From the sequence record OR167180: 64,000 nt of DNA; one strand, given 5' to 3'. The stretch comes from Escherichia phage MIZ4. The notes below the pieces were generated by a model. That model made no database searches and had not been told where the DNA came from. It saw only the letters and a list, made by a program, of their open reading frames with translations. This document shows positions 8,103 to 43,033 of this stretch, in pieces; position 1 is the stretch's first letter; each line of letters starts with the position of its first letter. Position numbers and translations under genes: made by a program.

Positions 8103-8131
8103 AGTATAACGGGGATTTCTCCCCGCGTCAA
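8103..8131 (-). promoter_or_regulatory. sigma70-like early promoter cassette, TTGACG-17-TATACT, spacer palindrome CGGGGAGAAATCCCCG
   Basis: minus strand reads TTGACG CGGGGAGAAATCCCCGT TATACT. Confidence 0.55.
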
Positions 8132-9157
8132 CTAACTTTTTGCGCTATTTACTTCGGCTAAAAGTTCATCAGAAATACGCTTGACCGCCGCAAGTTCTTC
8201 CGGTTCTAGGTTTTGTTCTTCCAGATATTCATAGACCATCTGAATAGTGCTTTTAACTTCAATAACACCTGTTTCCTGTGATGCGCTACTCTCCAGCTTA
8301 TGGACCACTTTTAGCTTGTGTACAACGGCCTCTAACGCGCTTTCTAACTTAGTTAACCCATTATCAGCGACCGTTGCGATAAGACGCACACTAAGCCCCT
8401 TAAAGCGTTCTACATCGATTTTATCATCTGACGGGTAAGTGATACGCACATGATAAGTTTTGTCATTCTGGATAAACTCTTTTTTGTGTGTATCGGTATC
8501 GAATACCCAAAACCCACGCGGATCGTTTTCGTCACCCGCCGTTAGTGTGTATGGTGTACCTATATACGTTACGTTACCGCCATCACTGATAGTATGAAAG
8601 TGACCCGAAAACACTTCACGGTATTTCTTTAGGAAGTCCGCGCTATAACCTTCGGATTTTAGCCCTTTATAGAAATAGTAACCGGACAATTCCCAATGGC
8701 CTACACAATATTCGCTGAATGAGTTTTGAATAAACTCTAAAATCTCTGATTTATTGTCATCACAAAACCACGGGAACAGATCAAATGATACACCATCAAA
8801 GGTGACTGTTTCCGGCTTATCAATAACCTTAATGCAATCATACTGGCTTAACACTTCACGCGGTGCGTTAGGCTGGATCTTGTTTCGTTTAAACATATCA
8901 TGATTCCCAACCGTGATATAACAAGTAATACCAGCCTCTTCCAGTAGCGGGATGATTTTCGTTCTATTAAAACGCATAGTTGCATGTGTGATTGCTTTTC
9001 GGCAATCAAACCAGTCCCCTGTCTGAATCCATGCCTTAATATTATGTTTTTTTGAATAATCGACTGCCTTTTTAATAGTATCAAGAATATACTCATGTAT
9101 CCACGGATCATCGTTGCCGATACCAGTATGCAGATCACCCAAAAGCAAAATTTTCAT
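8132..9157 (-). CDS. 47: recombination nuclease gp47 (Mre11-like phosphoesterase)
   Basis: MKILLLGDLH, TGDWFD, VGNHD, GHWE, GHFH, GTPYTLTAGDENDPRGFW match T4 gp47. Confidence 0.85.
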   Translation of the reverse strand: MKILLLGDLHTGIGNDDPWIHEYILDTIKKAVDYSKKHNIKAWIQTGDWFDCRKAITHATMRFNRTKIIPLLEEAGITCYITVGNHDMFKRNKIQPNAPREVLSQYDCIKVIDKPETVTFDGVSFDLFPWFCDDNKSEILEFIQNSFSEYCVGHWELSGYYFYKGLKSEGYSADFLKKYREVFSGHFHTISDGGNVTYIGTPYTLTAGDENDPRGFWVFDTDTHKKEFIQNDKTYHVRITYPSDDKIDVERFKGLSVRLIATVADNGLTKLESALEAVVHKLKVVHKLESSASQETGVIEVKSTIQMVYEYLEEQNLEPEELAAVKRISDELLAEVNSAKS

Positions 9158-9172
9158 ATTATACATAATCTC

Positions 9173-9727
9173 CTAAAAATTTTTAACACCATATTCACCA
9201 AAATAAAGATCAACCGCTTTGTCATAAGCTCTGGCCGCATCTTCTTCGTTGACATAATACCCAAGAGATATTAGTTTATCATTATTTCGTATTCTTGCAA
9301 CCCATTTCTTCGTATGTTTATGCCAGCTAACCCCTTTATACTTGCTTGCTTTATTCTTGTACTTTCCAACGTTACAAGCATTTTTCTTTGCGTCGGACTC
9401 TCTAAGATTGCGTGGTGCGTTGTTTAAAGGATTTCGGTCTATATGATCTATAATTTCTGGTTGTGTTCCATGCTCAAGAAACCATACAATACGATGTACA
9501 TATGGCTTTAAAACCCTCCCATTATCCATAACAATTGCAATTTGGAGATGATCCTGACTTTTAAAAGTTTTTACTTTATCTCCTGCCTTATAAAACTTTC
9601 CTTCGTAATTCTTTCCTCCGGCTCGGCTATTCTTTAAATGATAAAGAATACCATCGTCGTCATGTCTATATCTTTCTCGTATAATTCGTTGCGTTTCTTC
9701 ATCCCACAATTTGGAACGTCTACTCAT
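9173..9727 (-). CDS. freestanding HNH homing endonuclease with C-terminal AP2-type DNA-binding domain
   Basis: HNH motif IDHIDRNPLNN; AP2-like YKGVSWHKHTKKWVARIR..LGYY..EEDAARAYDKA; sits where T4 has a-gt. Confidence 0.75.
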   Translation of the reverse strand: MSRRSKLWDEETQRIIRERYRHDDDGILYHLKNSRAGGKNYEGKFYKAGDKVKTFKSQDHLQIAIVMDNGRVLKPYVHRIVWFLEHGTQPEIIDHIDRNPLNNAPRNLRESDAKKNACNVGKYKNKASKYKGVSWHKHTKKWVARIRNNDKLISLGYYVNEEDAARAYDKAVDLYFGEYGVKNF

Positions 9728-9817
9728 AGTCTCTTCCTCTCTTCGTTTTCGATGCTCTCACTATATCACAGAAAAATAAAAAGGGAAACCCCTTTCAGAG
9801 TCTCCCTTATAAAGCCA

Positions 9818-10105
9818 TTACAGCATACTTAATACCGTTTGCCGTGTACTAATCCACATAGCAGAAAGCAGTTCTGGTGTGTGTGGCTGTTTGTAGATAT
9901 CACGTAATTTTCCGATAGCGTAGATATACGCATCACGATTATCATCGATGATAGCTTGCTCAGCCCACCGCTTAAGTCGTGCAATCTCTCGCGAGTTCTT
10001 ACGCAAGATCTTTTCCGCTTTCTTAGCGGCTTTAGCCTCTAGTTCTGCTTGTACTTTGTCTACTTCATTCACTGCAATCTTGTCATGCTGTTCATTGCAA
10101 GTCAT
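9818..10105 (-). CDS. hypothetical protein
   Basis: 95-aa ORF. Confidence 0.35.
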   Translation of the reverse strand: MTCNEQHDKIAVNEVDKVQAELEAKAAKKAEKILRKNSREIARLKRWAEQAIIDDNRDAYIYAIGKLRDIYKQPHTPELLSAMWISTRQTVLSML

Positions 10106-10106
10106 A

Positions 10107-10340
10107 TTATTTTACCTCTGGGATATAATCAATTATTAAAGAAAATTCATCTTCTGATACATTATAGCTATGTGAGATTGTACCCGTCAAGACCTCAAGA
10201 TCCGGTGATTTGATATTGCACGGATCGATAATCACCGGAACGCCGCAATCTCTCAAAAATAATTTGGCGAAATACGGCACAAGGTCAGTTTCAAACTCTG
10301 CTTCTTCCAGCAAACGGGAAATGTTAATTTTCAATCTCAT
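10107..10340 (-). CDS. hypothetical protein
   Basis: 77-aa ORF. Confidence 0.35.
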
Positions 10341-10857
10341 AAAATTGGTCCAGGCTAGGCAATTCCTCGGTCAATACATCTTCAACCTTTGGCGCTTTCG
10401 GTTTATTGACCGATTCCTCGTAGTTGTTGATTTTATCGTAAATGTCCTGTATGAATGCCTCATCAGCAATCTGGCACATATCAGCGTCGCGTTCGTCATA
10501 TACATGATGCACAAAATATTTGTATTTTGCGGCTGTCGCTGTTCTTTCTTTTTTAATGCGCTGCACAAAAGCATTAAAGCACGCTTGCGTGATGTAAGCA
10601 TGAGGATTTTTATACTTTGTCTCGTCAAAATTAATCAAACCCTTGACCGCCGCTTCGATTCCATCGTCGATCATTTCTTCGCGCCATGTTTGACTATAGC
10701 CAGAAAAGTTAAAACGCCGTGATAGATTTTTAGAGATTTGCATAATTGCCAGGCCGATTTGGTCACTCATTGGCACTTGCCGACCTTCTGCTGCAATTCG
10801 TTGTTTCCAACGGCAAATTTCTTCGTAAAGCTCTTTATTGTTTACATAATCAGACAC
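10324..10857 (-). CDS. 55: late-transcription sigma factor gp55
   Basis: [70 protein letters not shown] match T4 gp55. Confidence 0.85.
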
Positions 10858-10897
10858 TTCGCACCCTCGCTATTATTTAGGAAATAACCCTTTCGGG

Positions 10898-15942: not shown

Positions 15943-16078
15943 TTACCCCGAACTCGTTTACAATCTGCGCTTTATAGTAACCACCGCGAGATGCTAATAG
16001 ATAAGCTGGGCTTAGGTATTCGTATTCACGGATTTCTACTTGTGCGTTTTCAGTTTCCCAAATCAGTAAAGTCCACAT
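15926..16078 (-). CDS. small hypothetical protein
   Basis: 50-aa ORF starting at the cassette RBS (GGAGAATCAAAT ATG); the ORF-track N-terminal extension runs through the promoter. Confidence 0.3.
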   Translation of the reverse strand: MWTLLIWETENAQVEIREYEYLSPAYLLASRGGYYKAQIVNEFGVIEYEF

Positions 16079-16120
16079 ATTTGATTCTCCTGTAAAGTTG
16101 TATCTCGTCTTGATGAATAT

Positions 16121-16149
16121 AGTATAGGGGATCTCGTGATCCCCGTCAA
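16121..16149 (-). promoter_or_regulatory. early promoter cassette, TTGACG-17-TATACT, spacer palindrome GGGGATC..GATCCCC
   Basis: minus strand TTGACG GGGATCACGAGATCCCC TATACT. Confidence 0.55.
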
Positions 16150-16153
16150 GCAT

Positions 16154-16687
16154 TTATTTTAAATTTTTTCGAATGTATTCAGACCATTCCTTCCCTGTCA
16201 TTTCGGACCCATTCTGGAAACTGAAATATTCATACGGCATCGAGTCAAGATAAAACAGGATCATACATCGCGCCATATAATACCAATCACGATTAAAGTA
16301 AACTACGTTATCGCCAGTACCATCAACCCCTTTATCATAACCATCGCGGGTACGGGCGACCCATTGAATAGTATCAGTTTTCTCACGGATAGTAACAGGT
16401 TCCCAATATCCAGCACATCCAGCATGACCACACGAACAAGTAAGGAAATATTGACCTTTTGCTTTGTTGTCATCCCATTCACGATGAATTGGTTTGATTT
16501 CGTGAAACAGTGCCAAACAATCATGATTATGCAACACTGGCTTACCATCAATCAATGCATGGAATGTATACAAACGACCCGTAGACAAATAGCTATCCTC
16601 ACGCTCAACCAGTTCAATAGCAATCTTTTTAGCTCGTTCTTTGTGTCGTTGTGCTTTACGTTTACGGTTTAATGATTTCATAGTCAC
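16154..16687 (-). CDS. hypothetical protein
   Basis: 177-aa ORF. Confidence 0.4.
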   Translation of the reverse strand: MTMKSLNRKRKAQRHKERAKKIAIELVEREDSYLSTGRLYTFHALIDGKPVLHNHDCLALFHEIKPIHREWDDNKAKGQYFLTCSCGHAGCAGYWEPVTIREKTDTIQWVARTRDGYDKGVDGTGDNVVYFNRDWYYMARCMILFYLDSMPYEYFSFQNGSEMTGKEWSEYIRKNLK

Positions 16688-16698: not shown

Positions 16699-17238
16699 TC
16701 AAAGATCGCGATATTGTACATTATGAAAATGAGAACTTGCATTACCAATATTGTAGATAACAAATTCTTCATCCGGCGCTTGCGCTACAAATTGAGTATG
16801 AGCAACCGCTACGACTTTAAAAATACGATCCGTGATCTTGTGCTTAATTTCTGCCCCTACTTCCATAGGAACATATTCATTTGTTTCTGTTTCAGTCGCA
16901 AAACAGCCATCTTCTTCATAAGCACGAACAAATCGGTCGCAATCAGTACGCTTAACAAATTCAAGAGTATATAATTCTCGTGAATTGTCGGTATAGACCA
17001 ATACAGAATTATTATGATAGCGAATCACATACAGGTTATTATCATCGTCAATTACGCAAAAGCTACGGATTCCTTCGCCTTGACTCCAGCAGACATTAAC
17101 CACCGTTCCTCTAATAAAAAAACTTTCCTTTAAATTAAAACTAGTCAATGTGCTAGCGTGCATTTTAACAACAACACCATCACCAATTTCCAGTTTACGA
17201 AGTTTAACTTCTTTGCTCAGTACACAAAACATCATCAT
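16699..17238 (-). CDS. hypothetical protein
   Basis: 179-aa ORF downstream of cassette 17268-17295. Confidence 0.4.
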   Translation of the reverse strand: MMMFCVLSKEVKLRKLEIGDGVVVKMHASTLTSFNLKESFFIRGTVVNVCWSQGEGIRSFCVIDDDNNLYVIRYHNNSVLVYTDNSRELYTLEFVKRTDCDRFVRAYEEDGCFATETETNEYVPMEVGAEIKHKITDRIFKVVAVAHTQFVAQAPDEEFVIYNIGNASSHFHNVQYRDL

Positions 17239-17267
17239 GTTGTCCTCTCGTTGTTTTCGATGTGAGC

Positions 17268-17295
17268 ATTATACATTAGCTAATCATATTGTCAA
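17268..17295 (-). promoter_or_regulatory. early promoter, TTGACA-16-TATAAT
   Basis: minus strand TTGACA ATATGATTAGCTAATG TATAAT, directly after terminator 17311-17332. Confidence 0.55.
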
Positions 17296-17310
17296 CACCC
17301 CAAAACGAAA

Positions 17311-17332
17311 AGCCGACCCTTTCGGATCGGCT
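17311..17332 (-). terminator. rho-independent terminator downstream of nrdD
   Basis: AGCCGATCC GAAA GGGTCGGCT hairpin then T-run on the minus strand. Confidence 0.6.
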
Positions 17333-19244: not shown

Positions 19245-19739
19245 TTATTTTACCAGTTCTGCTAATTCTTTTTCCGCCGCTTCCAGTTCAGCTTTAAGCT
19301 GTTTAATCTCTTGTCGCTTCTTATTAGCGGCTTCCTGCTTACTATTTCGGATAACCTGATCTAGATACAACTCCCAATCCTGAATATTTTTGATAATGTA
19401 TCCGTCAACATTAATTGGTCGGAGATTCAGTACAGCTTCCAGTTTAGTCGCAAAAACTTTAATTGCTGGTGTGAAGTATTCATATTCGTTATCTTCAAAC
19501 CAATAACCTAGACTTGCATTATCAATACGAAGACGAAGTTTAAGATCAAGGTCTTTATCGTCGGTGTAAAGATCTTTCACCTGCCCCATCGAGCTAACAA
19601 CAACTTTAAAACGAATTTTATCTACACCGCCAAAAACATCTTCAAGAATATCAGCAATTGAGCTATTAGCGCAAGATTGGTCGCTGAATGCGTCAAGGTT
19701 TTCTTTAGTTACAGTATACCAAACATCTTGTACCCACAT
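19245..19739 (-). CDS. hypothetical protein with C-terminal coiled coil
   Basis: 164-aa ORF downstream of cassette 19770-19797. Confidence 0.4.
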   Translation of the reverse strand: MWVQDVWYTVTKENLDAFSDQSCANSSIADILEDVFGGVDKIRFKVVVSSMGQVKDLYTDDKDLDLKLRLRIDNASLGYWFEDNEYEYFTPAIKVFATKLEAVLNLRPINVDGYIIKNIQDWELYLDQVIRNSKQEAANKKRQEIKQLKAELEAAEKELAELVK

Positions 19740-19769
19740 AATATAATCCTCTCGTTGTTAAGTGGGAGT

Positions 19770-19797
19770 ATTATAGCATACTCCCTTCGCATGTCAA
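19770..19797 (-). promoter_or_regulatory. early promoter cassette, TTGACA-16-TATAAT, palindrome GGGAGTAT..ATACTCCC spanning the -10
   Basis: minus strand TTGACA TGCGAAGGGAGTATGC TATAAT ACTCCC. Confidence 0.55.
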
Positions 19798-20972
19798 GCA
19801 CTAACTTTTTTCTTTACTGCTTTCACCTTCTGGCGAATTGCTCGAATCTCTTCGATCTCTTTTTCAGTATCTTTAACAATTTCTTTGCGATTCTGAATAT
19901 CTTTATCGAGATTATCATCAAGTTTAGGCAGCATGTCAATCAAGAACTTTTTAAGGTCTTTCAGGTTGCGAATAACAGTACCTTCACCCATTACCGCCAC
20001 GCCTACACCATCCGGCAGATCACCAAACAGTTTAACCAGTTCAGACAGATGATCATGATCTTCTAGTGCTTCTTCCGGTTCAGATGGCAGTTCAACAAAG
20101 TAATAACGTTCATCATTGCTGATCAGGTGATACCAGCAAAGCCCAAAAGATTTAGGAGTATATTCTACACCACCAACTTCAACTGCGTCAACACTTCCAT
20201 AATCATCTACTTTAGTTACCTTAAATCCTTGTCCCAGCTTTTGAACAATTTCAACAACATGACTTGATACAGTTTCAGCGGTAAACCAATATGGCAAATT
20301 ATGCTGATTTGGCTTGTAGCGTTCACCTACTTTAAATCTCTGACCAGCCGCTTGCATAGAATGAAATTGTTGTTTCGTGATTTCCGCGAAGTATTCAAAT
20401 TCGCCACCATCAAACACACAAGCCCATTGATCACAAAAACGATCTGCCTTAACAGTTTCACCTTTCGCGGTGATCATGGTAGCTGATCCGTGCAATTCTT
20501 CTTCAACTAAAAAGCCATATTCGACAAAATCAACAAGTTTCATAGCTTCTTTGTGATCTGGATCATGCTCTCCCCAGAATCGCTTAAATTCTTGCAAACC
20601 TTCTGGGGTAAACGAATAACATTTACCTTTTTCAAAGTAAGTCGGCATTGCATCCTCTTTCTTGTTCATCGCTTCGTATGCCTCTTTTGAGATGCGTTTA
20701 AAGTATTTACGCTCATTGTGCATAATCATAGTAGCCCAATAATCAACAATATCATTAGCGGAATAAACTACATCTCCAGCTTCAATAGTAATAACATGAC
20801 CGTGGTCATCTTTTTCTAATACTTTAAAGCCCTTTTCTACGATTTCAGCAACTCGAATATGACCACGGCGCGAAGCATCGGTCAGAATAATTGAATAGCG
20901 AGAAAAGTCTAGAAACTCATCTTTACCGCCTTCACGGAATGCATAGTAATGACCTTCAAAGAATTTAGCCAT
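19794..20972 (-). CDS. member of paralogous repeat-domain family (3 tandem modules)
   Basis: three modules each with F.xG.xY...F ... GFxVxxxD..G ... ERKYFKRI / EFEYFAEI / ERYYFVEL; C-terminal coiled coil. Confidence 0.5.
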   Translation of the reverse strand: MAKFFEGHYYAFREGGKDEFLDFSRYSIILTDASRRGHIRVAEIVEKGFKVLEKDDHGHVITIEAGDVVYSANDIVDYWATMIMHNERKYFKRISKEAYEAMNKKEDAMPTYFEKGKCYSFTPEGLQEFKRFWGEHDPDHKEAMKLVDFVEYGFLVEEELHGSATMITAKGETVKADRFCDQWACVFDGGEFEYFAEITKQQFHSMQAAGQRFKVGERYKPNQHNLPYWFTAETVSSHVVEIVQKLGQGFKVTKVDDYGSVDAVEVGGVEYTPKSFGLCWYHLISNDERYYFVELPSEPEEALEDHDHLSELVKLFGDLPDGVGVAVMGEGTVIRNLKDLKKFLIDMLPKLDDNLDKDIQNRKEIVKDTEKEIEEIRAIRQKVKAVKKKVSA

Positions 20973-21003
20973 AATATAATCCTCTCGTTGTTTAGATGGG
21001 AGT

Positions 21004-21032
21004 ATCTTACTACTCCCGTTTCATCATGTCAA
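21004..21032 (-). promoter_or_regulatory. early promoter cassette, TTGACA-17-TAAGAT
   Basis: minus strand TTGACA TGATGAAACGGGAGTAG TAAGAT ACTCCC. Confidence 0.5.
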
Positions 21033-21035
21033 GCG

Positions 21036-21596
21036 TTAAAGTGACTTTTTAATCTCTTTCAGTTCTTCCACTTTCTCGGCGCTGAATTTAGCGTAGGTAT
21101 CATGTCGAATAATTTCACTTTCAAGAAAGGTTTCCAGTCGAGATCTATTTTCAATAAGGAACTCTTTCAGGTCTTCCGCGTTCTTGACAAAGATTTTATT
21201 GTCGGTAATGTCATCTTCAATCGCAAAGGAGATAGAGCGAACTTTACCAAACAAGTTAATCAGATCTTCCAGAGATTCTTCTTTCTTAACTGGTTTCATT
21301 TCTTCAAACTGCTTTTTAGTGATGCGTTTAAAGTATTTGCGCTCGTTTGCAGCAATCAGAACAGATGCACCTTCATACCCATGAGTTTCTACCAGATACA
21401 CACGCCCCATCGCATCAACAGTGAGAACTTTAAAGCCGTTACAAAGCACGTCATACAAGAACTTATTATGTTGCGGACATCGTTTGATAAATTCTGCGGC
21501 TGTTTCTGCACTACGGAAAGTGTAATAACGACCTCGTTCAAAAACAGCATCATTTGAAGACTTAGCCGGATACAATTTATACATTTTCTGTACCAT
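21036..21596 (-). CDS. member of paralogous repeat-domain family
   Basis: FERGRYYTFRSAETAAEF, GFKVLTVDAMGRV, NERKYFKRITKK. Confidence 0.45.
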   Translation of the reverse strand: MVQKMYKLYPAKSSNDAVFERGRYYTFRSAETAAEFIKRCPQHNKFLYDVLCNGFKVLTVDAMGRVYLVETHGYEGASVLIAANERKYFKRITKKQFEEMKPVKKEESLEDLINLFGKVRSISFAIEDDITDNKIFVKNAEDLKEFLIENRSRLETFLESEIIRHDTYAKFSAEKVEELKEIKKSL

Positions 21597-21610: not shown

Positions 21611-21883
21611 TCATTTCACTAATTGAACAGCACGAAACAGAATGCGGTCACACGGAAGCAGCATAAATTCCCAACGCGGATCAAAGTCTTTAGCGGTGTA
21701 TGTTTTCCCATCAACAGAGATTTCACTTACATAACCAATAGGTGACACTTTAAGAACAGTAAATCCATTCTTGATTGCTTCGTAGGTATCTTTCAGACCT
21801 TCGTAGTCATCCTCTAGGAAGTCTTTACGTGCTTGCTCAGATTTAAAAACATAGGCCACACCAGCTTTAAACATCTTACGCAT
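21611..21883 (-). CDS. member of paralogous repeat-domain family (single short module)
   Basis: FKAGVAYVFKSEQARKDF, GFTVLKVSPIGYVSEISVDGKTYT. Confidence 0.4.
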   Translation of the reverse strand: MRKMFKAGVAYVFKSEQARKDFLEDDYEGLKDTYEAIKNGFTVLKVSPIGYVSEISVDGKTYTAKDFDPRWEFMLLPCDRILFRAVQLVK

Positions 21884-21914
21884 TGTTGATTCTCCTTCTT
21901 GATTAGATGGGAGT

Positions 21915-21943
21915 ATTTTACTACTCCCGTTTCATGTTGTCAA
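21915..21943 (-). promoter_or_regulatory. early promoter cassette, TTGACA-17-TAAAAT
   Basis: minus strand TTGACA ACATGAAACGGGAGTAG TAAAAT ACTCCC. Confidence 0.55.
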
Positions 21944-21946
21944 CTC

Positions 21947-22420
21947 CTATCTTAATCTTTGTATGAATTGTTTCTTATACTTCTTCGTGATTTCTTCTCG
22001 TGTATCAGCGTCGCAGTATTCGAAACCTTCTGCGTCCATAATATCAACCATCTCCGCGCGTGTCAAGCGTGAAAATCGTTTTACTTTATCAACAGCATAT
22101 TGAGGATGTAAATGATTGTTGGTGTAGTCTCCTTTGATGTAATTAACATAGTTTGTAGCCCAAACAACGAAATCAGCACCTAAAGCACCAACACCAAACC
22201 GTTTAAAGTCTCCGGTCAACGATCCTTCTAGGCGGTTGCAACACGAATGAAGCAATCCCCTTACGCGGCCTTGCCCTTTCCCATCTAGATCATGATCATG
22301 GTCAAGATGGTTTTTGCTCATATCCTCAAAAAGTGGCAATTGACAAAGGGGGCAAATGCCCCCCTGTTTTTCGAATAGTTCTTGTTTGTACTCTTTAGCA
22401 CTCTTAGCAGTCAGTAACAT
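21947..22420 (-). CDS. 49: recombination endonuclease VII (gp49)
   Basis: C.LCQ, HLDHDHDL.G, RGLL..CN, ADFVVW match T4 endo VII; start at MLLTAK as in T4. Confidence 0.8.
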   Translation of the reverse strand: MLLTAKSAKEYKQELFEKQGGICPLCQLPLFEDMSKNHLDHDHDLDGKGQGRVRGLLHSCCNRLEGSLTGDFKRFGVGALGADFVVWATNYVNYIKGDYTNNHLHPQYAVDKVKRFSRLTRAEMVDIMDAEGFEYCDADTREEITKKYKKQFIQRLR

Positions 22421-25105: not shown

Positions 25106-25139
25106 AATATAATCCTCACATCGTTCATTTGATGCGGTC

Positions 25140-25168
25140 ATTATATGATAACCGCATTTTCATGTCAA
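25140..25168 (-). promoter_or_regulatory. early promoter, TTGACA-17-TATAAT
   Basis: minus strand TTGACA TGAAAATGCGGTTATCA TATAAT. Confidence 0.5.
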
Positions 25169-25174
25169 CAGTTT

Positions 25175-25772: not shown

Positions 25773-25815
25773 TTTTGATTCTCCTTAAGAAAGTATGTTT
25801 CGTTTTGATGTGTGT

Positions 25816-25844: not shown

Positions 25845-25851
25845 CAACTTT

Positions 25852-27821: not shown

Positions 27822-28083
27822 TACATGATTTTAATGCATCAGTCGAGGTGTCATAGCGAGTATTATCATAGCACCAATAACCATCTGTCAACTGATAAAT
27901 TAATCCATCCTTTTTAGCGTCGATGAAAGACAATTCTTTGAAAGTTTCTACTTTCTTTGCTGATACTCCACGGTCACGGCGTTTATAGAGTTTAGCTAAA
28001 ACGCGTTCAGCTTGTTCCTCTTTATCGCCAGACAGATCCCAGATGACGTTTCTGATATGCTTGATTAATTGTTCAGTGGTCAT
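27793..28083 (-). CDS. hypothetical protein
   Basis: 96-aa ORF starting at the cassette RBS. Confidence 0.35.
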   Translation of the reverse strand: MTTEQLIKHIRNVIWDLSGDKEEQAERVLAKLYKRRDRGVSAKKVETFKELSFIDAKKDGLIYQLTDGYWCYDNTRYDTSTDALKSCNDHLRKTSI

Positions 28084-28113
28084 ATTTGATTCTCCTTAGT
28101 TGGTATGGTTATC

Positions 28114-28141
28114 ATTATACGGGGATTTCTCCCCGTGTCAA
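28114..28141 (-). promoter_or_regulatory. early promoter cassette, TTGACA-16-TATAAT, spacer palindrome CGGGGAGAAATCCCCG
   Basis: minus strand TTGACA CGGGGAGAAATCCCCG TATAAT. Confidence 0.6.
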
Positions 28142-28144
28142 CAA

Positions 28145-28368
28145 TTAAATGATCTCTGCTTCACCGTTAAGGAAGAAGGACCATGTTTTGTTAGGATAAC
28201 GAAGCGCCCATGATTCAGCAGTTTTAACACCAGCTTCGAACAATTGACGGCTGGTTACTTTAGCCATACCATCTTCGATGGCAACGTTTTCAATAATCAT
28301 CGGGTACTTAGCGCCACGCATGAAACCGAAGCCAGCGGAAGATTTGATAATTTTAACAGTTGCCATTT
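28145..28368 (-). CDS. small paralog family B member
   Basis: MATVKIIKSSAGFGFMRGAKYPMIIENV; start set at the cassette RBS. Confidence 0.4.
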
Positions 28369-28404
28369 TTGATTCTCCTAGAAAGTGTCGTGTTTCGATG
28401 GGTG

Positions 28405-28434
28405 TATTATGCAATAACACCGGATCGCTGTCAA
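28405..28434 (-). promoter_or_regulatory. early promoter cassette, TTGACA-18-ATAATA
   Basis: minus strand TTGACA GCGATCCGGTGTTATTGC ATAATA then leader CACCCATCGAAACACGAC. Confidence 0.5.
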
Positions 28435-28452
28435 CACTTTATAAGAAAAATT

Positions 28453-29419: not shown

Positions 29420-29618
29420 TCTTCACGGTCTCCATAATTGTTTTGTAAGCCAGTTTAAGATGATCACCGAAAAACTTTGCATTGTTACCCTTCGGATCGC
29501 GGAGCATGGTTTCTACGATCTCATAGGCAGTAACAATTTCTCCTTTCTTTGCTGCATGTTCTACCATATACTTCAAAGTTTCTTCGGAGGAAAGTGCTGC
29601 GGCTACTGGATTAATCAT
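29409..29618 (-). CDS. hypothetical protein
   Basis: 69-aa ORF starting at the cassette RBS. Confidence 0.3.
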   Translation of the reverse strand: MINPVAAALSSEETLKYMVEHAAKKGEIVTAYEIVETMLRDPKGNNAKFFGDHLKLAYKTIMETVKNAK

Positions 29619-29646
29619 TTTGGTTCTCCTTTGTTGTCGATGTGTG

Positions 29647-29676
29647 CATTATGCTATACCATATTCCGGTTGTCAA
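29647..29676 (-). promoter_or_regulatory. early promoter cassette, TTGACA-18-ATAATG
   Basis: minus strand TTGACA ACCGGAATATGGTATAGC ATAATG, directly after terminator 29693-29712. Confidence 0.5.
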
Positions 29677-29692
29677 CACCTAAAAACGAAAA

Positions 29693-29712
29693 AGCCACCC
29701 TTTCGGATGGCT
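29693..29712. terminator. bidirectional rho-independent terminator
   Basis: AGCCACCC TTTC GGATGGCT hairpin flanked by A-run and T-run. Confidence 0.6.
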
Positions 29713-29946
29713 TTTTGATTATATTTTATTCACGTCCATTTGTATAGTAGTGTTTGAATCGACCTTTGCTAAACTCGTTAAACATAGTAACCAATTCACC
29801 ATCCCTTTCCAATGATAAACCTTCCTCGTCTTAGACGGGTCTTCCGATTAGGTAGTAATTGAACACGCGAAAGTATGAGGAAGCCAAATAGTTGTGTTAA
29901 TGCTAGTATTCTTTTACTTCTGGTATGCATCCCACAGTGACTAACA

Positions 29947-33497: not shown

Positions 33498-33920
33498 TTA
33501 TTGGTCTACCTTCAAAACAACCGCCGACATTTTACCCGCCAGTCGTTTTGGATTCTCTATAATCATTCGGCAGCATAGACCGTGATATGGCTTACCCTCT
33601 TCGATTAGATCTACTGTCATCCCGATCCACATGTTACCGTCAGTAATTTCTAATCGATTCGGTCGGTCTTCCATTTTCAGGAAGTCGAAGATCTCCGGCA
33701 AACGAGTTTCTATCTTATTGAATAGTTCCATTGTCTTATGTTCATCGATATGACGATCGGTTAGACGGTCGATCATATGCGGACTAAATCGAATGAAAAT
33801 ATACTCACCGTAACCATCATTCAAGCACTTTTCTTTGATCTGCGCATTGGTTTTGCGCATTTCGGTTTCGAAGAATCTACGCAGCTTACTACGGCGAACA
33901 TGTACGTTAATTGTTTCCAT
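33498..33920 (-). CDS. regB: endoribonuclease RegB
   Basis: INVHVRRSKLRRFFE, RLEITDGNMWIGMTV, CRMIIENPKRLAGK match T4 RegB; start taken at METINV. Confidence 0.8.
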   Translation of the reverse strand: METINVHVRRSKLRRFFETEMRKTNAQIKEKCLNDGYGEYIFIRFSPHMIDRLTDRHIDEHKTMELFNKIETRLPEIFDFLKMEDRPNRLEITDGNMWIGMTVDLIEEGKPYHGLCCRMIIENPKRLAGKMSAVVLKVDQ

Positions 33921-33924: not shown

Positions 33925-34260
33925 TTATCCTTTCTTAAACAAATTGCGAAGCCAGTATACAAACGGGATTTCTTTAAACTTGAATTTCTCAATAGTTAAT
34001 TCTTTAGTAGCAAGATGAATACCATAAGCATCATGTGTAACTATATGCCATTTTCTATAGTCCAAATGTGAACAACCGTCTGGATCTAGGTTAATAAGAG
34101 TTTCTCGCTCACTAGGATTATTTTTCCACAATTTTGTAATAGGATCGCACATAATTCGACCTAGCGTACCATGAATAATCTCACAACGGTAAAGTTTTCC
34201 AGCAGTGAGATAGGCGCACCCGTCATAGTCGGTATAAACAAACACTTCTTTAACACTCAT
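33925..34260 (-). CDS. small paralog family C member
   Basis: DGCSHLDYRKW motif; start at the cassette RBS (MSVKEVF). Confidence 0.35.
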   Translation of the reverse strand: MSVKEVFVYTDYDGCAYLTAGKLYRCEIIHGTLGRIMCDPITKLWKNNPSERETLINLDPDGCSHLDYRKWHIVTHDAYGIHLATKELTIEKFKFKEIPFVYWLRNLFKKG

Positions 34261-34291
34261 TTTAATACTCCTTTGTTGTTTCGATGGGGGT

Positions 34292-34320
34292 ATATTACTA
34301 CCCCCGATCATGTGTGTCAA
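34292..34320 (-). promoter_or_regulatory. early promoter cassette, TTGACA-17-TAATAT, palindrome GGGGGTA..TACCCCC
   Basis: minus strand TTGACA CACATGATCGGGGGTAG TAATAT ACCCCC then CATCGAAACAAC leader. Confidence 0.5.
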
Positions 34321-34581
34321 CTACTTTTTCAAGATTTTTTTAATTGCATTCCAAAGACCTTTATTCCCAGGTTGTTTTGGTTCTTCGATCAGTGTCCATG
34401 TTCGACCGTCTAAGTGTGCACAATTTTTAAGACAAATAAAAATCTGGTGTCCTTTATCATCACGGATATAACCACTATTCGCAAATCTTTCATGTGGTGT
34501 ATATTCATACAGTGTATTTGGTGTAATATACTTGCGGTTACTATAAGGTGTCATCACATACATCATGGTACTAACTCCCAT
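34321..34581 (-). CDS. small paralog family C member
   Basis: YEYTP..GYIRDDKGHQIFICLKNCAHLDGRTW. Confidence 0.35.
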   Translation of the reverse strand: MGVSTMMYVMTPYSNRKYITPNTLYEYTPHERFANSGYIRDDKGHQIFICLKNCAHLDGRTWTLIEEPKQPGNKGLWNAIKKILKK

Positions 34582-39651: not shown

Positions 39652-39978
39652 TTAGAAAGAAACAGTTTTCAAGAAATCCAGATTTTTAGTACCGAAAACA
39701 GAAAAGTAGTGTTTTCCTTTTTCGGTTTTAGAGAAAGCGATTGTCTTCTCTACATGGTGACGGAAGCCAGACAGACGATCACCCAGGTCAAGGCGGCAAG
39801 CGTAAGTAGTGCCGTTTTCGAAAGTAACCTCGATTTGAGTTTTGTCATATTCGCTTTCATAGGCTTTTGCTGCCGCTTCCAGTGCTTTACGCTCGAAGTC
39901 TTCGAAGTGGAATACTTCGTTTGCGTTAGCGAATACAGAAGATTCAGAGAAGATAACTTTAACAGATACTGGTTTCAT
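39652..39978 (-). CDS. hypothetical protein
   Basis: 108-aa ORF starting at the cassette RBS. Confidence 0.35.
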   Translation of the reverse strand: MKPVSVKVIFSESSVFANANEVFHFEDFERKALEAAAKAYESEYDKTQIEVTFENGTTYACRLDLGDRLSGFRHHVEKTIAFSKTEKGKHYFSVFGTKNLDFLKTVSF

Positions 39979-40019
39979 TTTGATACTCCTTAGTAGTTCG
40001 TGTTTCGTTTCGATGGGTG

Positions 40020-40049
40020 TATTATGCTATACACCCTCTCGCGTGTCAA
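40020..40049 (-). promoter_or_regulatory. early promoter cassette, TTGACA-18-ATAATA
   Basis: minus strand TTGACA CGCGAGAGGGTGTATAGC ATAATA then leader CACCCATCGAAACGAAACAC. Confidence 0.5.
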
Positions 40050-40057
40050 CAACTTTT

Positions 40058-40246
40058 TTAGTATTTTTTCATAATTTCTAGAGCAGTTTCTACAGCACCT
40101 TTCCAACCTTCCCACATAATGGACATAGTAAGGAAGTTAAAGCACCCGCAGGAATCAACCTTTTTAGAGATAAACCATTCTACAAACGCTTCGCTCATAC
40201 CATGCTCTTTAGCGGATTCGCGTAATTGTTCAATTTGGTCTTCCAT
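40058..40246 (-). CDS. hypothetical protein
   Basis: 62-aa ORF. Confidence 0.3.
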   Translation of the reverse strand: MEDQIEQLRESAKEHGMSEAFVEWFISKKVDSCGCFNFLTMSIMWEGWKGAVETALEIMKKY

Positions 40247-40454: not shown

Positions 40455-40676
40455 TTATAGTTGGTCAGCGATGTAAGCGTGACAAGCGCGGAGTTTCATT
40501 AATGCACTACCTTTCACTTCGCCTACGATGTTCATAACTTCTAAGCGGTCGGATGGATTCATCTTAGAGCACCAGATCTGGTTAGCCAATTCCAGTTTAC
40601 TCATATTTGGTTCCATCTCAAACAGTTCACGCTCAAAGTCGATAATTTCTTTTGCTGCGTCTTTAAAGTTAATCAT
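40455..40676 (-). CDS. hypothetical protein
   Basis: 73-aa ORF starting at the cassette RBS. Confidence 0.3.
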   Translation of the reverse strand: MINFKDAAKEIIDFERELFEMEPNMSKLELANQIWCSKMNPSDRLEVMNIVGEVKGSALMKLRACHAYIADQL

Positions 40677-40705
40677 TTTGATTCTCCCGTTTCGTTGATG
40701 GTTGT

Positions 40706-40734
40706 ATTGTAGGGGAGTTATCCTCCCCTGTCAA
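40706..40734 (-). promoter_or_regulatory. early promoter cassette, TTGACA-17-TACAAT, spacer palindrome GGGGAGGATAACTCCCC
   Basis: minus strand TTGACA GGGGAGGATAACTCCCC TACAAT. Confidence 0.5.
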
Positions 40735-40742
40735 CACTTTTA

Positions 40743-40928
40743 TCAGAAATATGCAATATAGTTTGCCAGTCCTACAGAGTCATCATTCGGCATTGCTTTT
40801 ACTGCCAGTTCAAACCCTGCTTCAACTTTCTGTTTAGCGGATTCTTCGTTATAACCCCAGATTACCAGAATAGCTACTACGTTTTCTTTGCTTACTGCTT
40901 TCAGTGCTTTAGTGATGCGACGTGCCAT
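40743..40928 (-). CDS. hypothetical protein
   Basis: 61-aa ORF starting at the cassette RBS. Confidence 0.3.
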   Translation of the reverse strand: MARRITKALKAVSKENVVAILVIWGYNEESAKQKVEAGFELAVKAMPNDDSVGLANYIAYF

Positions 40929-40973
40929 AATTTGATTCTCCGTTTAAGAAAGTGTGTTTCGTTTCGATGGGTG

Positions 40974-41003
40974 TATTATGCTATAGGCCGGATCTGGTGT
41001 CAA
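40974..41003 (-). promoter_or_regulatory. early promoter cassette, TTGACA-18-ATAATA
   Basis: minus strand TTGACA CCAGATCCGGCCTATAGC ATAATA then leader CACCCATCGAAACGAAACAC. Confidence 0.5.
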
Positions 41004-41036
41004 CAACTTTTTTAAAAAAATTTTAGGCAATAAAAA

Positions 41037-41056
41037 AGCCACTCCGAAGAGTGGCT
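41037..41056 (-). terminator. rho-independent terminator
   Basis: AGCCACTC TTCG GAGTGGCT then TTTTTTATT on the minus strand. Confidence 0.55.
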
Positions 41057-41204
41057 TATAGGGAAGGTAGCGAATCTTCCTTGTCTCCAACCTGCTAGCG
41101 GCCTAGCAAGTGAATGCTTTAGCGTACCGGGTCGCCCATACGCTGTAATAAATGCGGCTAGGTGACGTCCAAATCATTCTAACCGCGCTGTCTTTAGTTC
41201 ACTA

Positions 41205-42124: not shown

Positions 42125-42329
42125 TAGACACCCCCACGACGATCAATTTCAAAAACTTTTTTTACCATCAACGAAGCATGTCACAACTGCCTCGTTGACT
42201 TCCGCAAATTGTTGTGTTACCCACTTAAGGTCAGATCGAAACAATGTTCTATTAATAACAAATGTTTTACCGCTCTTATCCTTACCCATAAATTTTGCTT
42301 TAACCATATCCAATTCCATATTATCACCT

Positions 42330-42488
42330 TATTTGCTAATCGCTAAACCTAATCCGAAGAGAGCACCCGAGGCTACAGTATACCCGAAAGTTTCAAAGGC
42401 AGTAAAGACATCTAAGCCACCAGCTAACAGAGTTGCAGTAAACAGAGTACCAGCTACGAACATAAAAGTTTTACCGATAAATTTCATT
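42330..42488 (-). CDS. small membrane protein (not in ORF track)
   Basis: hand translation MKFIGKTFMFVAGTLFTATLLAGGLDVFTAFETFGYTVASGALFGLGLAISK, immediately downstream of cassette 42519-42547 with the canonical AGGAGAATCAAA RBS. Confidence 0.4.
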
Positions 42489-42518
42489 TTGATTCTCCTT
42501 TCGTTTGTTTGTGGGGGT

Positions 42519-42547
42519 ATCTTACTACCCCCGTTTCATGTTGTCAA
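42519..42547 (-). promoter_or_regulatory. early promoter cassette, TTGACA-17-TAAGAT, palindrome GGGGGTAG..CTACCCCC
   Basis: minus strand TTGACA ACATGAAACGGGGGTAG TAAGAT ACCCCC. Confidence 0.5.
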
Positions 42548-42553
42548 CTATTT

Positions 42554-42931
42554 TTAAGAATATTTTACTTCGTCTACAATGTCTTTCATGACATTGATTT
42601 CCATTCCGGTCAGAACACGTTGGAACATGTGCTGCACATACGCTTTCAGGTATTCATTTGATGGCTTACTATCGAAAGTCTTTTTAGTGTAGTAGTCATC
42701 ACCGAAAGCTACTGTAATTACATTTTCGTCGTCGTTCCAAGCGATATAAGCAAATTTGCCGTTATCCCAGAAGCGAGCACTAATTGCTACTTTTGTTGAA
42801 TCGAATCCTACTTCGCTGTGAGATTCAAGAACTACTTGCGTACCAGTTTCTTTATGAATGTAGTAGCGGGATACTAAGTCAAAGTTACGGGTGTAGTGAC
42901 ATTCGAATTTATCTTTAAACATCATCATCAT
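42554..42931 (-). CDS. hypothetical protein
   Basis: start set at the ATG run after the cassette RBS; the ORF-track extension runs through the promoter. Confidence 0.35.
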   Translation of the reverse strand: MMMMFKDKFECHYTRNFDLVSRYYIHKETGTQVVLESHSEVGFDSTKVAISARFWDNGKFAYIAWNDDENVITVAFGDDYYTKKTFDSKPSNEYLKAYVQHMFQRVLTGMEINVMKDIVDEVKYS

Positions 42932-42967
42932 TTTGATTCTCCTAAGTGTGTTTCGTTTCGATATGTG

Positions 42968-42997
42968 CATTATGCTATAGTCGTTTATGGTTGTCAA
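42968..42997 (-). promoter_or_regulatory. early promoter cassette, TTGACA-18-ATAATG
   Basis: minus strand TTGACA ACCATAAACGACTATAGC ATAATG then leader CACATATCGAAACGAAACAC; directly after terminator 43015-43033. Confidence 0.5.
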
Positions 42998-43014
42998 CAC
43001 CTAAAAACAAAAAA

Positions 43015-43033
43015 CCCCGAAAAATTTTCGGGG
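43015..43033 (-). terminator. rho-independent terminator
   Basis: CCCCGAAAA/TTTTCGGGG hairpin followed by a T-run on the minus strand. Confidence 0.55.

Follow-up and report, generated by a model that had tools for sequence, protein, structure and literature searches.

The repeated modules that punctuate the minus-strand early region of the 64,000-nucleotide stretch analysed here (the window) belong to a known class, the PeSL ('promoter-early stem-loop') cassettes of RB49-like coliphages; the observation was correct and is ordinary. We consider PeSL cassettes of an RB49-like T4-type phage (MIZ5) to be the best explanation, with a probability of about 0.93. Over the window, identity is 100% to Escherichia phage MIZ5 and 96–97% to RB49, Phi1 and JSE (genus Krischvirus), and all 17 minus-strand cassettes have syntenic orthologs in RB49 and Phi1. 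Seven relatives were compared (RB49, Phi1, JK32, FL20, JSE, SSG23 and LF73P4), and in the last five the cassettes are syntenic too, within the stretch of the window covered by each compared locus. The likeness to PeSLs proposed in an earlier note on this DNA is thus borne out by syntenic orthologs, by published anatomy and by paralogy to assayed PeSLs, and the comparison that it suggested with RB49, Phi1 and JSE places cassettes at syntenic positions in all three. To the published picture, in which Arbiol et al. 2010 (PMC2839356) defined PeSLs and assayed them with lacZ and PMC4122927 describes their Gn-loop-Cn stem-loop and their TTGACA-N17-TATAAT promoter, the present analysis adds a rule of one hairpin per cassette, an RBS exclusive to cassettes and the reassortment of sub-modules.

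The cassettes are compact intergenic modules of 70–130 nt, all 17 co-oriented with their genes and directly 5′ of an ORF start. Each reads, on the minus strand, A-rich tract, GTTGAC(A/G), a spacer of 16–17 nt, −10 and a C-rich discriminator ending in CATC, followed by a leader that is rich in A and unstructured, then an RBS and ATG (17 of 17). Multiple alignment confirmed all 17 coordinates of the earlier note, which are the 3′ ends of the −10 hexamers, and supported predicted sigma70-type promoters with TTGACA or TTGACG at every site, with spacers of 16 and 17 nt but not the 18 nt also claimed. The similarity extends past the −35 and −10 hexamers: the A tract is conserved, as are a G at −36 and the discriminator aCaCcCATC (1.3–1.7 bits). 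'Near-identical' was nevertheless an overstatement, as two copies share on average 41–43% identity once the hexamers are set aside, versus 26% for random sequence. The leader described as conserved was recovered in 5 of 17 copies at ≤3 mismatches and not in the remainder, and the 'almost invariant' RBS was exact in 9 of 17 and present in relaxed form in 12 of 17. The small ORFs of unknown function said to adjoin the cassettes are indeed there, the first cistron being annotated as a hypothetical protein in 16 of 17 cases.

A simple consensus scan yields 57–60 expected promoter-like sites per 20 kb of shuffled sequence, as would suit a reading in which sigma70-like hexamers cluster by chance, or generically, in AT-rich phage DNA. 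However, particular motifs occur 6- to 30-fold more often than expected and only at cassette sites: AGGAGAATCAAAATG at ≤2 mismatches has 8 matches (0.24 expected), all 8 in cassettes; the leader motif has 5 (0.84 expected); and all 9 occurrences of GGAGAATCAA in the 64 kb lie inside cassettes. The looser TTGAC[AGT]-N16-18-TAnnnT gave 43 matches, with 8.5 expected. Motif enrichment, the intergenic and co-oriented gene context, conservation in orthologs and homology to tested PeSLs rule a chance cluster out, leaving it a negligible probability. A profile derived from the 17 copies recovered only those same 17, two weak matches and one plus-strand copy (56714–56770, E = 2e-7); leave-one-out profiles of cassette sub-segments seldom reached significance.

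Counting this 18th copy, every cassette carries one hairpin. In 13 of 18 a G-C hairpin lies within the promoter (dG −8.3 to −15.8, z to −4.8); in the other 5 a hairpin with a U-run, forming a terminator, stands immediately 5′ of the −35 and none lies inside the promoter; no cassette among the 18 has both hairpin types or neither. Given the margins, such exact complementarity would arise by chance with a probability of 1/8568. Below, brackets give the extent of each cassette, then the first T of the −35 and the 3′ end of the −10; cassettes 1–17 are all on the minus strand. Embedded hairpins occupy the spacer in cassette 1 (8075..8143; 8131, 8103), where TTGACG abuts the gp47 stop codon and is followed by CGGGGA-GAAA-TCCCCG (dG −12.9), TATACT, the RBS GGAGG and the ATG of an ORF038-like gene, and in cassette 9 (28081..28153; 28141, 28114), a chimera of the same CGGGGA-GAAA-TCCCCG core with the native ORF078 leader ATACCAACTAAGGAGAATCAAA. 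Cassette 2 (16076..16161; 16149, 16121) combines TTGACG, the spacer hairpin GGGGATC-ACGA-GATCCCC (dG −13.1), TATACT and AGGAGAATCAAATATG and heads an ORF053-nrdG unit, its orthologs keeping the stem while the loop varies. Spacer hairpins are also found in cassette 8 (25770..25856; 25844, 25816), with GGGGAT-CACGT-ATCCCC, a long leader ATCAAAACGAAACATACTTTCTTA and AGGAGAATCAAAAATG, and in cassette 14 (40674..40746; 40734, 40706), with GGGGAG-GATAA-CTCCCC (dG −13.6), TACAAT and GGGAGAATCAAAATG.

Eight hairpins overlap the −10. Cassette 4 (19737..19809; 19797, 19770; TTGACA-16-TATAAT) has GGGAGTAT-GCTATA-ATACTCCC across it (dG −13.3) and the RBS module GAGAGGATTATATTATG; cassette 5 (20970..21044; 21032, 21004), which heads frd.2/goF, has GGGAGTA-GTAAGA-TACTCCC over the −10 TAAGAT (dG −11.9) and again GAGAGGATTATATTATG. 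The core of cassette 6 (21881..21955; 21943, 21915) is 93% identical to that of cassette 5, yet its RBS is of the GGAGAATCAA type, an example of module reassortment. In cassette 7 (25103..25180; 25168, 25140; TTGACA-17-TATAAT), GCGGTTAT-CATATA-ATGACCGC (dG −13.9) includes one G.U pair, which is A-U in the Phi1 ortholog. The weakest hairpin of the set (dG −8.3, z −1.1) is the bulged GGTGT..ACACC of cassette 10 (28364..28446; 28434, 28405; TTGACA-17-CATAAT, with AGGAGAATCAAAAATG). Cassette 12 (34258..34332; 34320, 34292), at the head of an ORF095-regB unit, has GGGGGTA-GTAATA-TACCCCC (dG −15.8); cassette 13 (39976..40061; 40049, 40020) has GGGTGTAT-AGCATA-ATACACCC (dG −14.8) and the canonical leader CATCGAAACGAAACAC; and cassette 16 (42485..42559; 42547, 42519), heading an ORF124-dmd unit, has GGGGGTA-GTAAGA-TACCCCC (dG −14.0) and an exact AGGAGAATCAAAATG.

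Upstream terminators accompany cores that lack an internal hairpin. In the earlier note, three copies had a GAAA-tetraloop terminator immediately before the −35; there are only two, each with a U run: 17332–17311 in cassette 3 (17236..17332; 17295, 17268; upstream dG −17.6), before TTGACA-16-TATAAT (core dG −2.3), the RBS GAGAGG and ATG, and 29716–29689 in cassette 11 (29616..29716; 29676, 29647; upstream dG −17.8), before TTGACA-17-CATAAT and adjoining an insertion hot spot at 29721–29913. In cassettes 1 and 9 the GAAA-loop hairpin instead lies between −35 and −10. Two further listed cassettes have terminators with other loops: cassette 15 (40926..41057; 41003, 40974), with a TTCG loop (41057–41036), a U run, an A/T tract, TTGACA-17-CATAAT and the canonical leader, and cassette 17 (42929..43034; 42997, 42968), with ACCCCGAAAA..TTTTCGGGGT (43034–43014; upstream dG −14.1), a U run, TTGACA-17-CATAAT and an exact AGGAGAATCAAAATG. 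The 18th cassette (56678..56776, plus strand), absent from the earlier list, comprises the terminator AAAAGCCAATTC-GAGA-GAGTTGGCTTTT, TTGACA-16-TATAAT, the leader ACACACATCTAAACAAC, GGAGG and ATG, and heads three non-structural ORFs, a DNA methyltransferase among them, between baseplate genes. The terminators had thus been noticed in part, whereas the 13 promoter-embedded hairpins, the defining stem-loop, had been overlooked.

The one-hairpin rule is kept in a natural swap: cassette 9 has a core hairpin and no upstream terminator in MIZ5, and in its RB49 ortholog a TTCG terminator stands upstream of a core without a hairpin. Orthologs retain stems while loops and spacers vary, and paralogs form the same stem position with different Watson–Crick pairs (GGGAGTA/TACTCCC, GGGGGTA/TACCCCC, GGGTGTA/TACACCC). 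A U tract is missing after the 13 embedded hairpins (0–4 T in the 8 nt past the stem), which are therefore not canonical intrinsic terminators. They might accordingly act as DNA, as cruciforms or protein sites that modulate promoter firing or direct recombination, given that they overlap the spacer, −10 and discriminator, where DNA structure affects open-complex formation, and that Arbiol et al. speculate on a DNA-binding recombination protein recognising GGGG..CCCC (PMC2839356). We consider this unlikely: the hairpins interchange strictly with classical RNA terminators, which lie upstream and cannot work through the DNA of the promoter; non-Watson–Crick stem pairs are all G.U on the sense strand, a mismatch in DNA and a pair in RNA; and in a reporter assay a spacer-type hairpin cloned alone cut downstream lacZ as strongly as rrnB T1, an assay covering one hairpin of one class, the spacer G4..C4 type (PMC2839356).

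Read as PeSLs, the cassettes suggest how each early unit may work. The A-rich tract and near-consensus sigma70 promoter would recruit unmodified host RNA polymerase right after infection, starting transcription about 7 nt past the −10, at the A of CATC. In Phi1/RB49, lacZ assays on close paralogs have demonstrated promoter activity (PMC2839356), and the RB49 early promoter consensus (T/C at −12, C at −3 to −1) agrees with 5′-end mapping (PMC1524935). In transcripts arriving from upstream, the G-C-rich hairpin would fold and terminate or attenuate them, an insulation of units that we infer from the strict either/or placement; the hairpin would be squeezed into the promoter at short intergenic gaps and otherwise form a classical terminator just upstream of the −35. 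Termination has been demonstrated at the PeSL211/210 locus (PMC2839356). The resulting leader, predicted at 19–40 nt, would be A-rich, G-poor and unstructured and end in a strong RBS, mostly GGAGAAUCAA(A)AUG; leader composition is 51% A and 10% G, and leader dG is −2.1 versus −6.3 in length-matched controls. The cassette RBS, confined to the first cistron of cassettes, probably ensures that the first small ORF is translated and, more speculatively, may serve as a RegB/S1 cleavage site for early shut-off. Judged from sequence, the RegB endoribonuclease (annotated at 33498..33920, minus strand) is a possible trans-acting partner of the RBS GGAGAAUCAAA, which matches the T4 RegB/S1 target GGAGAAUAAAA (Durand et al. 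2006, PMC1702504) at 10 of 11 positions and, like it, doubles as SD within an unstructured A-rich early leader. It differs from T4 targets at position 8, a C here but in T4 the most conserved A, with C almost excluded (PMC1702504), and RB49 RegB is divergent.

Whether cassettes also move genes, as modules shuffling novel genes, received modest support. They form sub-families in which promoter cores and RBS modules reassort (core and RBS sub-families uncorrelated, r = 0.17). Since paralogs share about 50–90 nt at 70–93% identity, they could offer the phage recombination system stretches of portable homology. The g38 adhesin presence/absence junction (28107–28145, common to 13 of 42 records) lies inside cassette 9. 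It is the only one of about 11 indels in the window with a junction in a cassette; about 9 of 11 lie away from cassettes, mostly as homing-endonuclease (HNH) genes or at intragenic or other intergenic sites. Moreover, only one end of the g38 replacement is in a cassette, RB49 having no second PeSL on the other side, so simple PeSL × PeSL excision does not explain it. These indels, cassette positions stable in 7 of 7 relatives within the window, the absence of any inserted segment bringing a new cassette and the average identity of only about 42% outside the hexamers would all fit a purely vertical punctuation, in which early promoter, insulator and RBS units are inherited in place with no special gene-moving role, their likeness reflecting shared functional constraint and occasional gene conversion. 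This remains a tentative, less probable account: paralogs tens of kb apart are 70–93% identical at unconstrained spacers and loops, cores and RBS modules are reassorted, the g38 and LF73P4 junctions fall exactly within cassettes, and PeSL × PeSL mini-circles were detected by inverse PCR and sequencing, in RB49/Phi1 only (PMC2839356).

Among known systems, the RB49/Phi1 PeSLs (PMC2839356) are closest, being of the same genus, at the same genomic positions, and built of the same AT tract, TTGACA-N17-TATAAT, Gn-loop-Cn hairpin in variable position, SD and ATG. By its sequence, cassette 8 is closely paralogous to the Phi1 elements PeSL206/205 and PeSL212/210, which have been tested by experiment: it is identical to PeSL206/205, assayed as promoter, at 48 of 50 positions, and the GGGGATCGGTGATCCCC hairpin of PeSL212/210, a locus assayed as terminator (RB49 PeSL211/210), is identical to that of its RB49 ortholog (PMC2839356). 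MIZ5 shows no categorical difference; a few cores differ, and cassette 9 is a chimera that goes with the lack of g38 at this site. The PeSL/PmSL elements of PST/T4 and nt-1/KVP40 (Comeau et al. 2014, PMC4122927) are likewise composites of promoter, stem-loop and SD that concentrate in hyperplastic regions and also lie near indels, but have a weaker promoter consensus (TTTACW or TTGYVH) and stem-loops upstream of the promoter (stems AGNA..TCNT or A3G3..C3T3), and some are MotA-type middle promoters; RB49-like phages lack MotA (PMC1524935). With T4 Pe and the RB49 early consensus (Nolan et al. 2006, PMC1524935; Desplats et al. 2002 as cited therein), the cassettes share the A-rich UP-like tract, G at −36, T/C at −12, C-rich −3 to −1 and a position 5′ of early or novel ORFs; the −35 is GTTTAC in T4 early promoters versus GTTGAC(A) here, and those descriptions leave out the hairpin and RBS modules. 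Integron gene cassettes and lambdoid 'morons' likewise place small accessory ORFs with their own expression signals between resident genes; unlike integron cassettes, PeSL cassettes have no integrase or attC site, and the mobility proposed for them would come from general homologous recombination, with the regulatory repeats themselves as partners.

The window carries a repeated early-promoter/hairpin/RBS module (here called a cassette and numbered by the first T of its -35 hexamer) in 17 minus-strand copies, with an 18th on the plus strand (56678-56776). Window positions 20000-44000 are 100.0% identical to Escherichia phage MIZ5 (OR167181.1, record 116000-139999; MIZ5 record position minus 96000 gives window position) and 96-97% identical to RB49, JSE, Phi1 and ~55 other Krischvirus records. 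The MIZ5 annotation places a minus-strand early region up to ~46.8 kb, with the exception of one small plus-strand ORF (45252-45506); within it, dozens of small hypothetical ORFs are interspersed among conserved T4-type genes (gp43, gp45, gp46/47, gp55, nrdD/G, gp49, dam, tk, regB, vs, dmd and 57A/B), and plus-strand baseplate genes follow. No cassettes are annotated in the MIZ5 record. All 17 minus-strand copies are intergenic, lying ~0-50 nt from the stop codons of upstream genes, and the first cistron is annotated 'hypothetical protein' in 16 of the 17, in agreement with the earlier note's statement that they adjoin small ORFs of unknown function.

Two side observations concern the annotation itself. 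The g43 DNA polymerase is represented in MIZ5 by two CDSs (403 and 468 amino acids) with an HNH endonuclease gene between them (window 45-1253, and MIZ5 record 93461-95902, just left of the window) and by one uninterrupted gene of 2679 bp in Phi1 and RB49, so that it looks like a polymerase gene split through homing-endonuclease insertion. Window 38243-38490 and 4794-5042 are unannotated in MIZ5, and RB49/Phi1 annotate small ORFs there (ORF106 and 45.2/ORF033, respectively); small genes have probably been missed or disrupted in these gaps.

The 17 repeated modules of the earlier note proved real: each of its coordinates is the final base of a minus-strand -10 hexamer, and all copies could be aligned, in the order A-rich tract, G(T/C)TTGAC(A/G), 16-17 nt spacer, -10, C-rich discriminator to CATC, A/C-rich leader, Shine-Dalgarno sequence (SD) and ATG. 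The -35 hexamer is TTGACA in 15 of the 17 copies and TTGACG in 2, and the spacer is 17 nt in 14 and 16 nt in 3, which bears out the 16- and 17-nt part of the claimed 16-18 nt range and removes 18 nt from it. The -10 hexamers are more varied (CATAAT in 5 copies, TATAAT in 4, TATACT in 3, TAAGAT in 2, and TAAAAT, TAATAT and TACAAT in 1 each). Leave-one-out nhmmer profiles built separately for the upstream 18 nt, the spacer and the stretch 3' of the -10 recovered almost no left-out copy; since this approach is ill-suited to sub-segments so short and heterogeneous, fixed-register column statistics and exact-motif counts were used instead. Across the 17 copies, the consensus directly 5' of TTGACA is aaaaAgttG, and information outside the hexamers is concentrated at G -36 (1.6 bits), A -40, and the discriminator plus CATC (1.3-1.7 bits), so the similarity extends beyond generic hexamers. 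Pairwise identity outside the hexamers averages 41-43%, against 26% for random sequence: the module recurs, but 'near-identical' overstated its uniformity. Motif counts likewise exceeded expectation for AGGAGAATCAAAATG with ≤2 mismatches (8 observed, 0.24 expected), the leader motif (5 against 0.84) and a loose promoter pattern (43 against 8.5), and all 9 occurrences of GGAGAATCAA lie within cassettes. The conserved leader that the note ascribed to every copy is present in 5 of the 17.

When searched with a profile built from the 17 copies, the window yielded one further full copy, at 56714-56770 on the plus strand (E 2e-7), as well as two weak minus-strand matches: 1285-1320 (E 0.19; TTGACA-17-TATAAT 5' of g43, annotated in RB49 as a hypothetical early promoter) and 27845-27904 (E 0.08; TTGACA-18-GATAAT within the ORF078 coding region). 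The neighbouring 50 kb of the MIZ5 genome contain at least 10 further cassettes. In phage GEC-3S (HE978309), 13 minus_10_signal features lie opposite window 20000-44000, equalling the number of cassettes there, a match by count alone. The plus-strand cassette (terminator, promoter and RBS) heads three non-structural ORFs (window 56678-58187, plus strand), namely two hypothetical proteins and a DNA methyltransferase, situated between baseplate wedge genes as an early-type unit within the late gene cluster. Mobile elements of the integron, MITE or REP-like kinds were considered for the repeated copies and rejected, given that we found neither an integrase nor terminal inverted repeats or target duplications, and that each copy looks like a functional promoter pointing in the direction of the genes. 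No Rfam family matched anywhere in the window at gathering thresholds.

What the earlier note overlooked is the defining stem-loop inside the promoter. Folding placed a strong G-C hairpin in the promoter core of 13 of the 18 cassettes (dG -8.3 to -15.8 kcal/mol, that of 28434 being weak), either in the spacer between -35 and -10 (n = 5; for example, CGGGGA-GAAA-TCCCCG and GGGGATC-ACGA-GATCCCC) or across the -10 (n = 8; for example, GGGAGTA-GTAAGA-TACTCCC and GGGTGTAT-AGCATA-ATACACCC). Cores without a hairpin number five (17295, 29676, 41003, 42997 and the plus-strand copy), and it is precisely these that carry a terminator, made of a hairpin and a U run, immediately 5' of the -35. Every cassette thus has one hairpin (18 of 18), and the probability of such perfect complementarity between core hairpin and upstream terminator is 1/8568 at those margins. 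Three GAAA-tetraloop terminators had been claimed 5' of the -35; two hold (17332-17311 and 29716-29689) and the third does not, two further cassettes have upstream terminators with other loops, and two more have a GAAA-loop hairpin in the spacer.

Comparison with relatives followed the same rule. Upstream of ORF078, RB49, Phi1, JSE and JK32 have a TTCG-loop terminator and then a promoter core that has no hairpin, and MIZ5 and FL20 have the CGGGGA-GAAA-TCCCCG hairpin in the core and no terminator, a swap that obeys the one-hairpin-per-cassette rule. Among orthologs, stems are preserved while loops and spacers drift (the loop of 16149 is ACGA, GCGA or TCGC; that of 25844 is CACGT, GGT or ACC); among paralogs, one same stem position can be A-T, G-C or T-A; and all imperfect stem pairs are G.T on the sense strand. 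Covariation was assessed by eye, as MAFFT set the 7-bp and 8-bp stems of the -10-overlapping hairpins out of register. Together, the either/or rule, the ORF078 swap, stem conservation, paralog pair changes and G.T pairs argue for selection on an RNA hairpin that would be read from upstream transcripts and be functionally equivalent to a terminator.

By the canonical definition (a G-C-rich hairpin with an immediate U run), the five upstream hairpins are intrinsic terminators. The 13 embedded hairpins fall outside that definition because they lack a U tract: after their stems come UAUACU, AUCGAAAC and the like. Termination has been shown for one stem-loop, that of RB49 PeSL211/210, a promoter-early stem-loop (PeSL) at the locus corresponding to Phi1 PeSL212/210 (PMC2839356). 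For the MIZ5 cassettes, the either/or relation with canonical terminators lends indirect support to the view that their stem-loops may stop or weaken upstream transcription.

Downstream of the promoter, the leaders (19-40 nt if transcription starts ~7 nt 3' of the -10; 51% A and 10% G) are nearly unstructured, with a mean dG of -2.1 against -6.3 ± 3.2 in length-matched controls. Every cassette ends in GGAG, GAGG or GGA, followed after 4-10 nt by the ATG of an annotated CDS. The RBS module GGAGAAUCAA(A)AUG is confined to cassette-first cistrons within the 64-kb window, and a second module, GAGAGGAUUAUAUUAUG, occurs in three cassettes, its short form GAGGAUUAUAUUAUG being found at three internal genes as well. 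The RBS described in the earlier note as almost invariant is so in 9-12 of the 17 copies and differs in the others: GGAGAAUCAAA, which sits in the unstructured leaders, occurs in 9 exact or 12 relaxed copies. In T4, the RegB/S1 site is a single-stranded GGA(G/U) followed by a 7-nt A-rich tract that is nearly C-free (consensus GGAGAAUAAAA; PMC1702504), with which GGAGAAUCAAA agrees at 10 of 11 positions; the exception is position 8, a C in the cassette RBS and a conserved A, almost never C, in T4 targets (PMC1702504). The phage encodes RegB (window 33498-33920). That the cassette RBS might be a RegB/S1 cleavage site is a speculative lead rather than a result.

These observations can be combined in a proposed mechanism, in which each cassette would serve as an early promoter (as shown for paralogs in RB49/Phi1), carry a single insulating hairpin (a function demonstrated for one hairpin class and inferred here for the rest), present an unstructured leader with a dedicated RBS (visible in the sequence, the RegB link being conjectural), and offer portable homology for recombination (shown in RB49/Phi1, with modest support in the window). 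To a reading of the cassette as a three-function switch (promoter, insulator hairpin and RegB/S1-cleavable RBS, with the U-less embedded hairpins as true terminator substitutes, one per cassette) we assign a probability of roughly 0.3. If it were true, cassette-headed ORFans would be turned on by host RNA polymerase and then jointly off by the phage's own RNase, and non-canonical or factor-assisted termination, or a 3'-end-protection mechanism, would be implied.

We also assessed the earlier note's proposal that the cassettes are modules that shuffle genes, using colinear chaining of BLAST hits between MIZ5 and Phi1, RB49, JK32, FL20 and JSE across window 8-46 kb. Approximately 9 of the ~11 distinct indels or replacements lie away from cassettes. 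They include HNH homing-endonuclease genes at 9158-9724 (gene 9173-9727; absent in Phi1 and FL20) and 35499-36098 (gene 35496-36089; absent in RB49, Phi1 and SSG23), an extra ORF in JSE and JK32 (37250-37281), variable segments at 26676-26813, 27570-27596, 38313-38576 and 39258-39456, and Phi1 ORF130.1. At the second HNH site, JSE has a different homing endonuclease, and a GAAA-tetraloop terminator (36132-36109) precedes the MIZ5 gene. Segments inserted in relatives bring no cassettes of their own, and comparison with SSG23 and LF73P4 revealed no further junction within a cassette, one LF73P4 rearrangement excepted.

The two indels that do involve cassettes are at the g38 locus and upstream of the 29676 terminator. 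In RB49-type genomes, the 909-bp g38 adhesin gene lies between ORF080 and ORF078, where MIZ5 has a 38-nt promoter core instead (window 28107-28145). The right junction falls at ~+1 of cassette 28141, such that the core was exchanged and the native leader, RBS and ORF078 were retained; since the left junction sits at the stop codon of ORF080 and no PeSL precedes g38 in RB49, the event took place at a cassette rather than by simple PeSL × PeSL excision. The MIZ5-type junction is common to 13 of 42 records, the other 29 breaking at that point. The early-region order ORF080-g38-ORF078 occurs in RB49 (28268-29044 of the fetched locus L003), Phi1, JSE, JK32 and SSG23; MIZ5, FL20 and 11 further records lack g38 at this place. 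Immediately behind g37 (record 66923-67705), MIZ5 carries a g38-like gene ('tail fiber protein; host specificity'), which is the T-even arrangement, so this host-range gene has two arrangements within the genus. At the second site, 328 bp of non-coding DNA separate rI.-1 from cassette 29676 (window 29619-29946); this insertion hot spot holds a ~2.1-kb ORF in JK32 and SSG23 and a small-ORF variant (ORF084.1) in Phi1.

Stronger evidence than that from indels, although indirect, suggests exchange between the cassettes themselves. Core and RBS sub-family memberships are uncorrelated (r = 0.17); cassettes 21032 and 21943 share 93% of the core and 50% of the RBS, and 19797 and 21032 share 100% of the RBS and 52% of the core. 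In LF73P4 (OZ035795; 10985-11205 of locus L010), the upstream flank and cassette of 25844 (window 25770-25856) are joined to an ORF210-like gene, with the crossover within the cassette; the paralogous cassette on the ORF210 side of MIZ5 is at record ~36024-36110. This junction, found in 1 of 58 records and in an unannotated assembly, may reflect genuine PeSL × PeSL recombination or an assembly error across a ~90-bp repeat, the two being indistinguishable. The shuffling proposal gains modest support from the g38 junction in 28141 and from core/RBS reassortment, and none from the ~9 of 11 indels elsewhere; the cassettes here act mostly as stable regulatory punctuation, with few gene-content differences traceable to them.

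PeSLs are proposed 'linker' sequences with which T4-type phages exchange accessory genes without breaking regulation, and they bear on the acquisition of host-range and anti-defence genes. For these questions the window provides an independent confirmation of PeSLs in a newer isolate, a complete coordinate list for annotation, a sober local estimate of the role of cassettes in gene-content change and, in the g38 adhesin difference with one junction in a cassette, a case relevant to the host range of therapy phages. The RB49 early consensus (T/C at -12; C at -3 to -1) is consistent with 5'-end mapping, which reportedly comes from Desplats et al. 2002, and RB49 has neither MotA nor middle promoters (Nolan et al. 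2006, PMC1524935).

In the definition of Arbiol et al. 2010 (PMC2839356), who counted 52 copies in Phi1 and 51 in RB49, a sigma70-consensus early promoter comes with an AT-rich tract, a stem-loop takes one of five positions (5' of the -35, between -35 and -10, across a box, or 3' of the -10), and the downstream ORF contributes its SD and ATG at the 3' end; PeSLs lie mainly in hyperplastic regions, 5' of ORFans; the RB49/Phi1 signature is Gn-loop-Cn and TTGACA-N17-TATAAT (Comeau et al. 2014, PMC4122927). The cassettes agree with RB49 and Phi1 PeSLs in every structural respect, having a near-consensus TTGACA-N17-TATAAT promoter, a stem-loop, a terminal SD and an intergenic position directly 5' of ORFans, mostly in hyperplastic regions. 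Homology points the same way and substantiates the likeness to RB49-type PeSLs that the earlier note had proposed: there are 17 syntenic orthologs in RB49 and 17 in Phi1, and cassettes are likewise syntenic in JK32, FL20, JSE, SSG23 and LF73P4 within the window stretch covered by each fetched locus. Cassette 25844 is identical at 48 of 50 positions to Phi1 PeSL206/205 (over AAAAAGTTG...CACACAT), with which the published promoter assay was done (PMC2839356), and is ~92% identical over ~88 nt to the MIZ5 ortholog of PeSL212/210, which precedes the ORF210 homolog 86 kb away; the Phi1 PeSL212/210 hairpin GGGGATCGGTGATCCCC recurs unchanged in the RB49 ortholog of 25844. Orthology as well as resemblance therefore supports the identification of the cassettes as PeSLs, and the elements of this window are already known rather than of a new kind.
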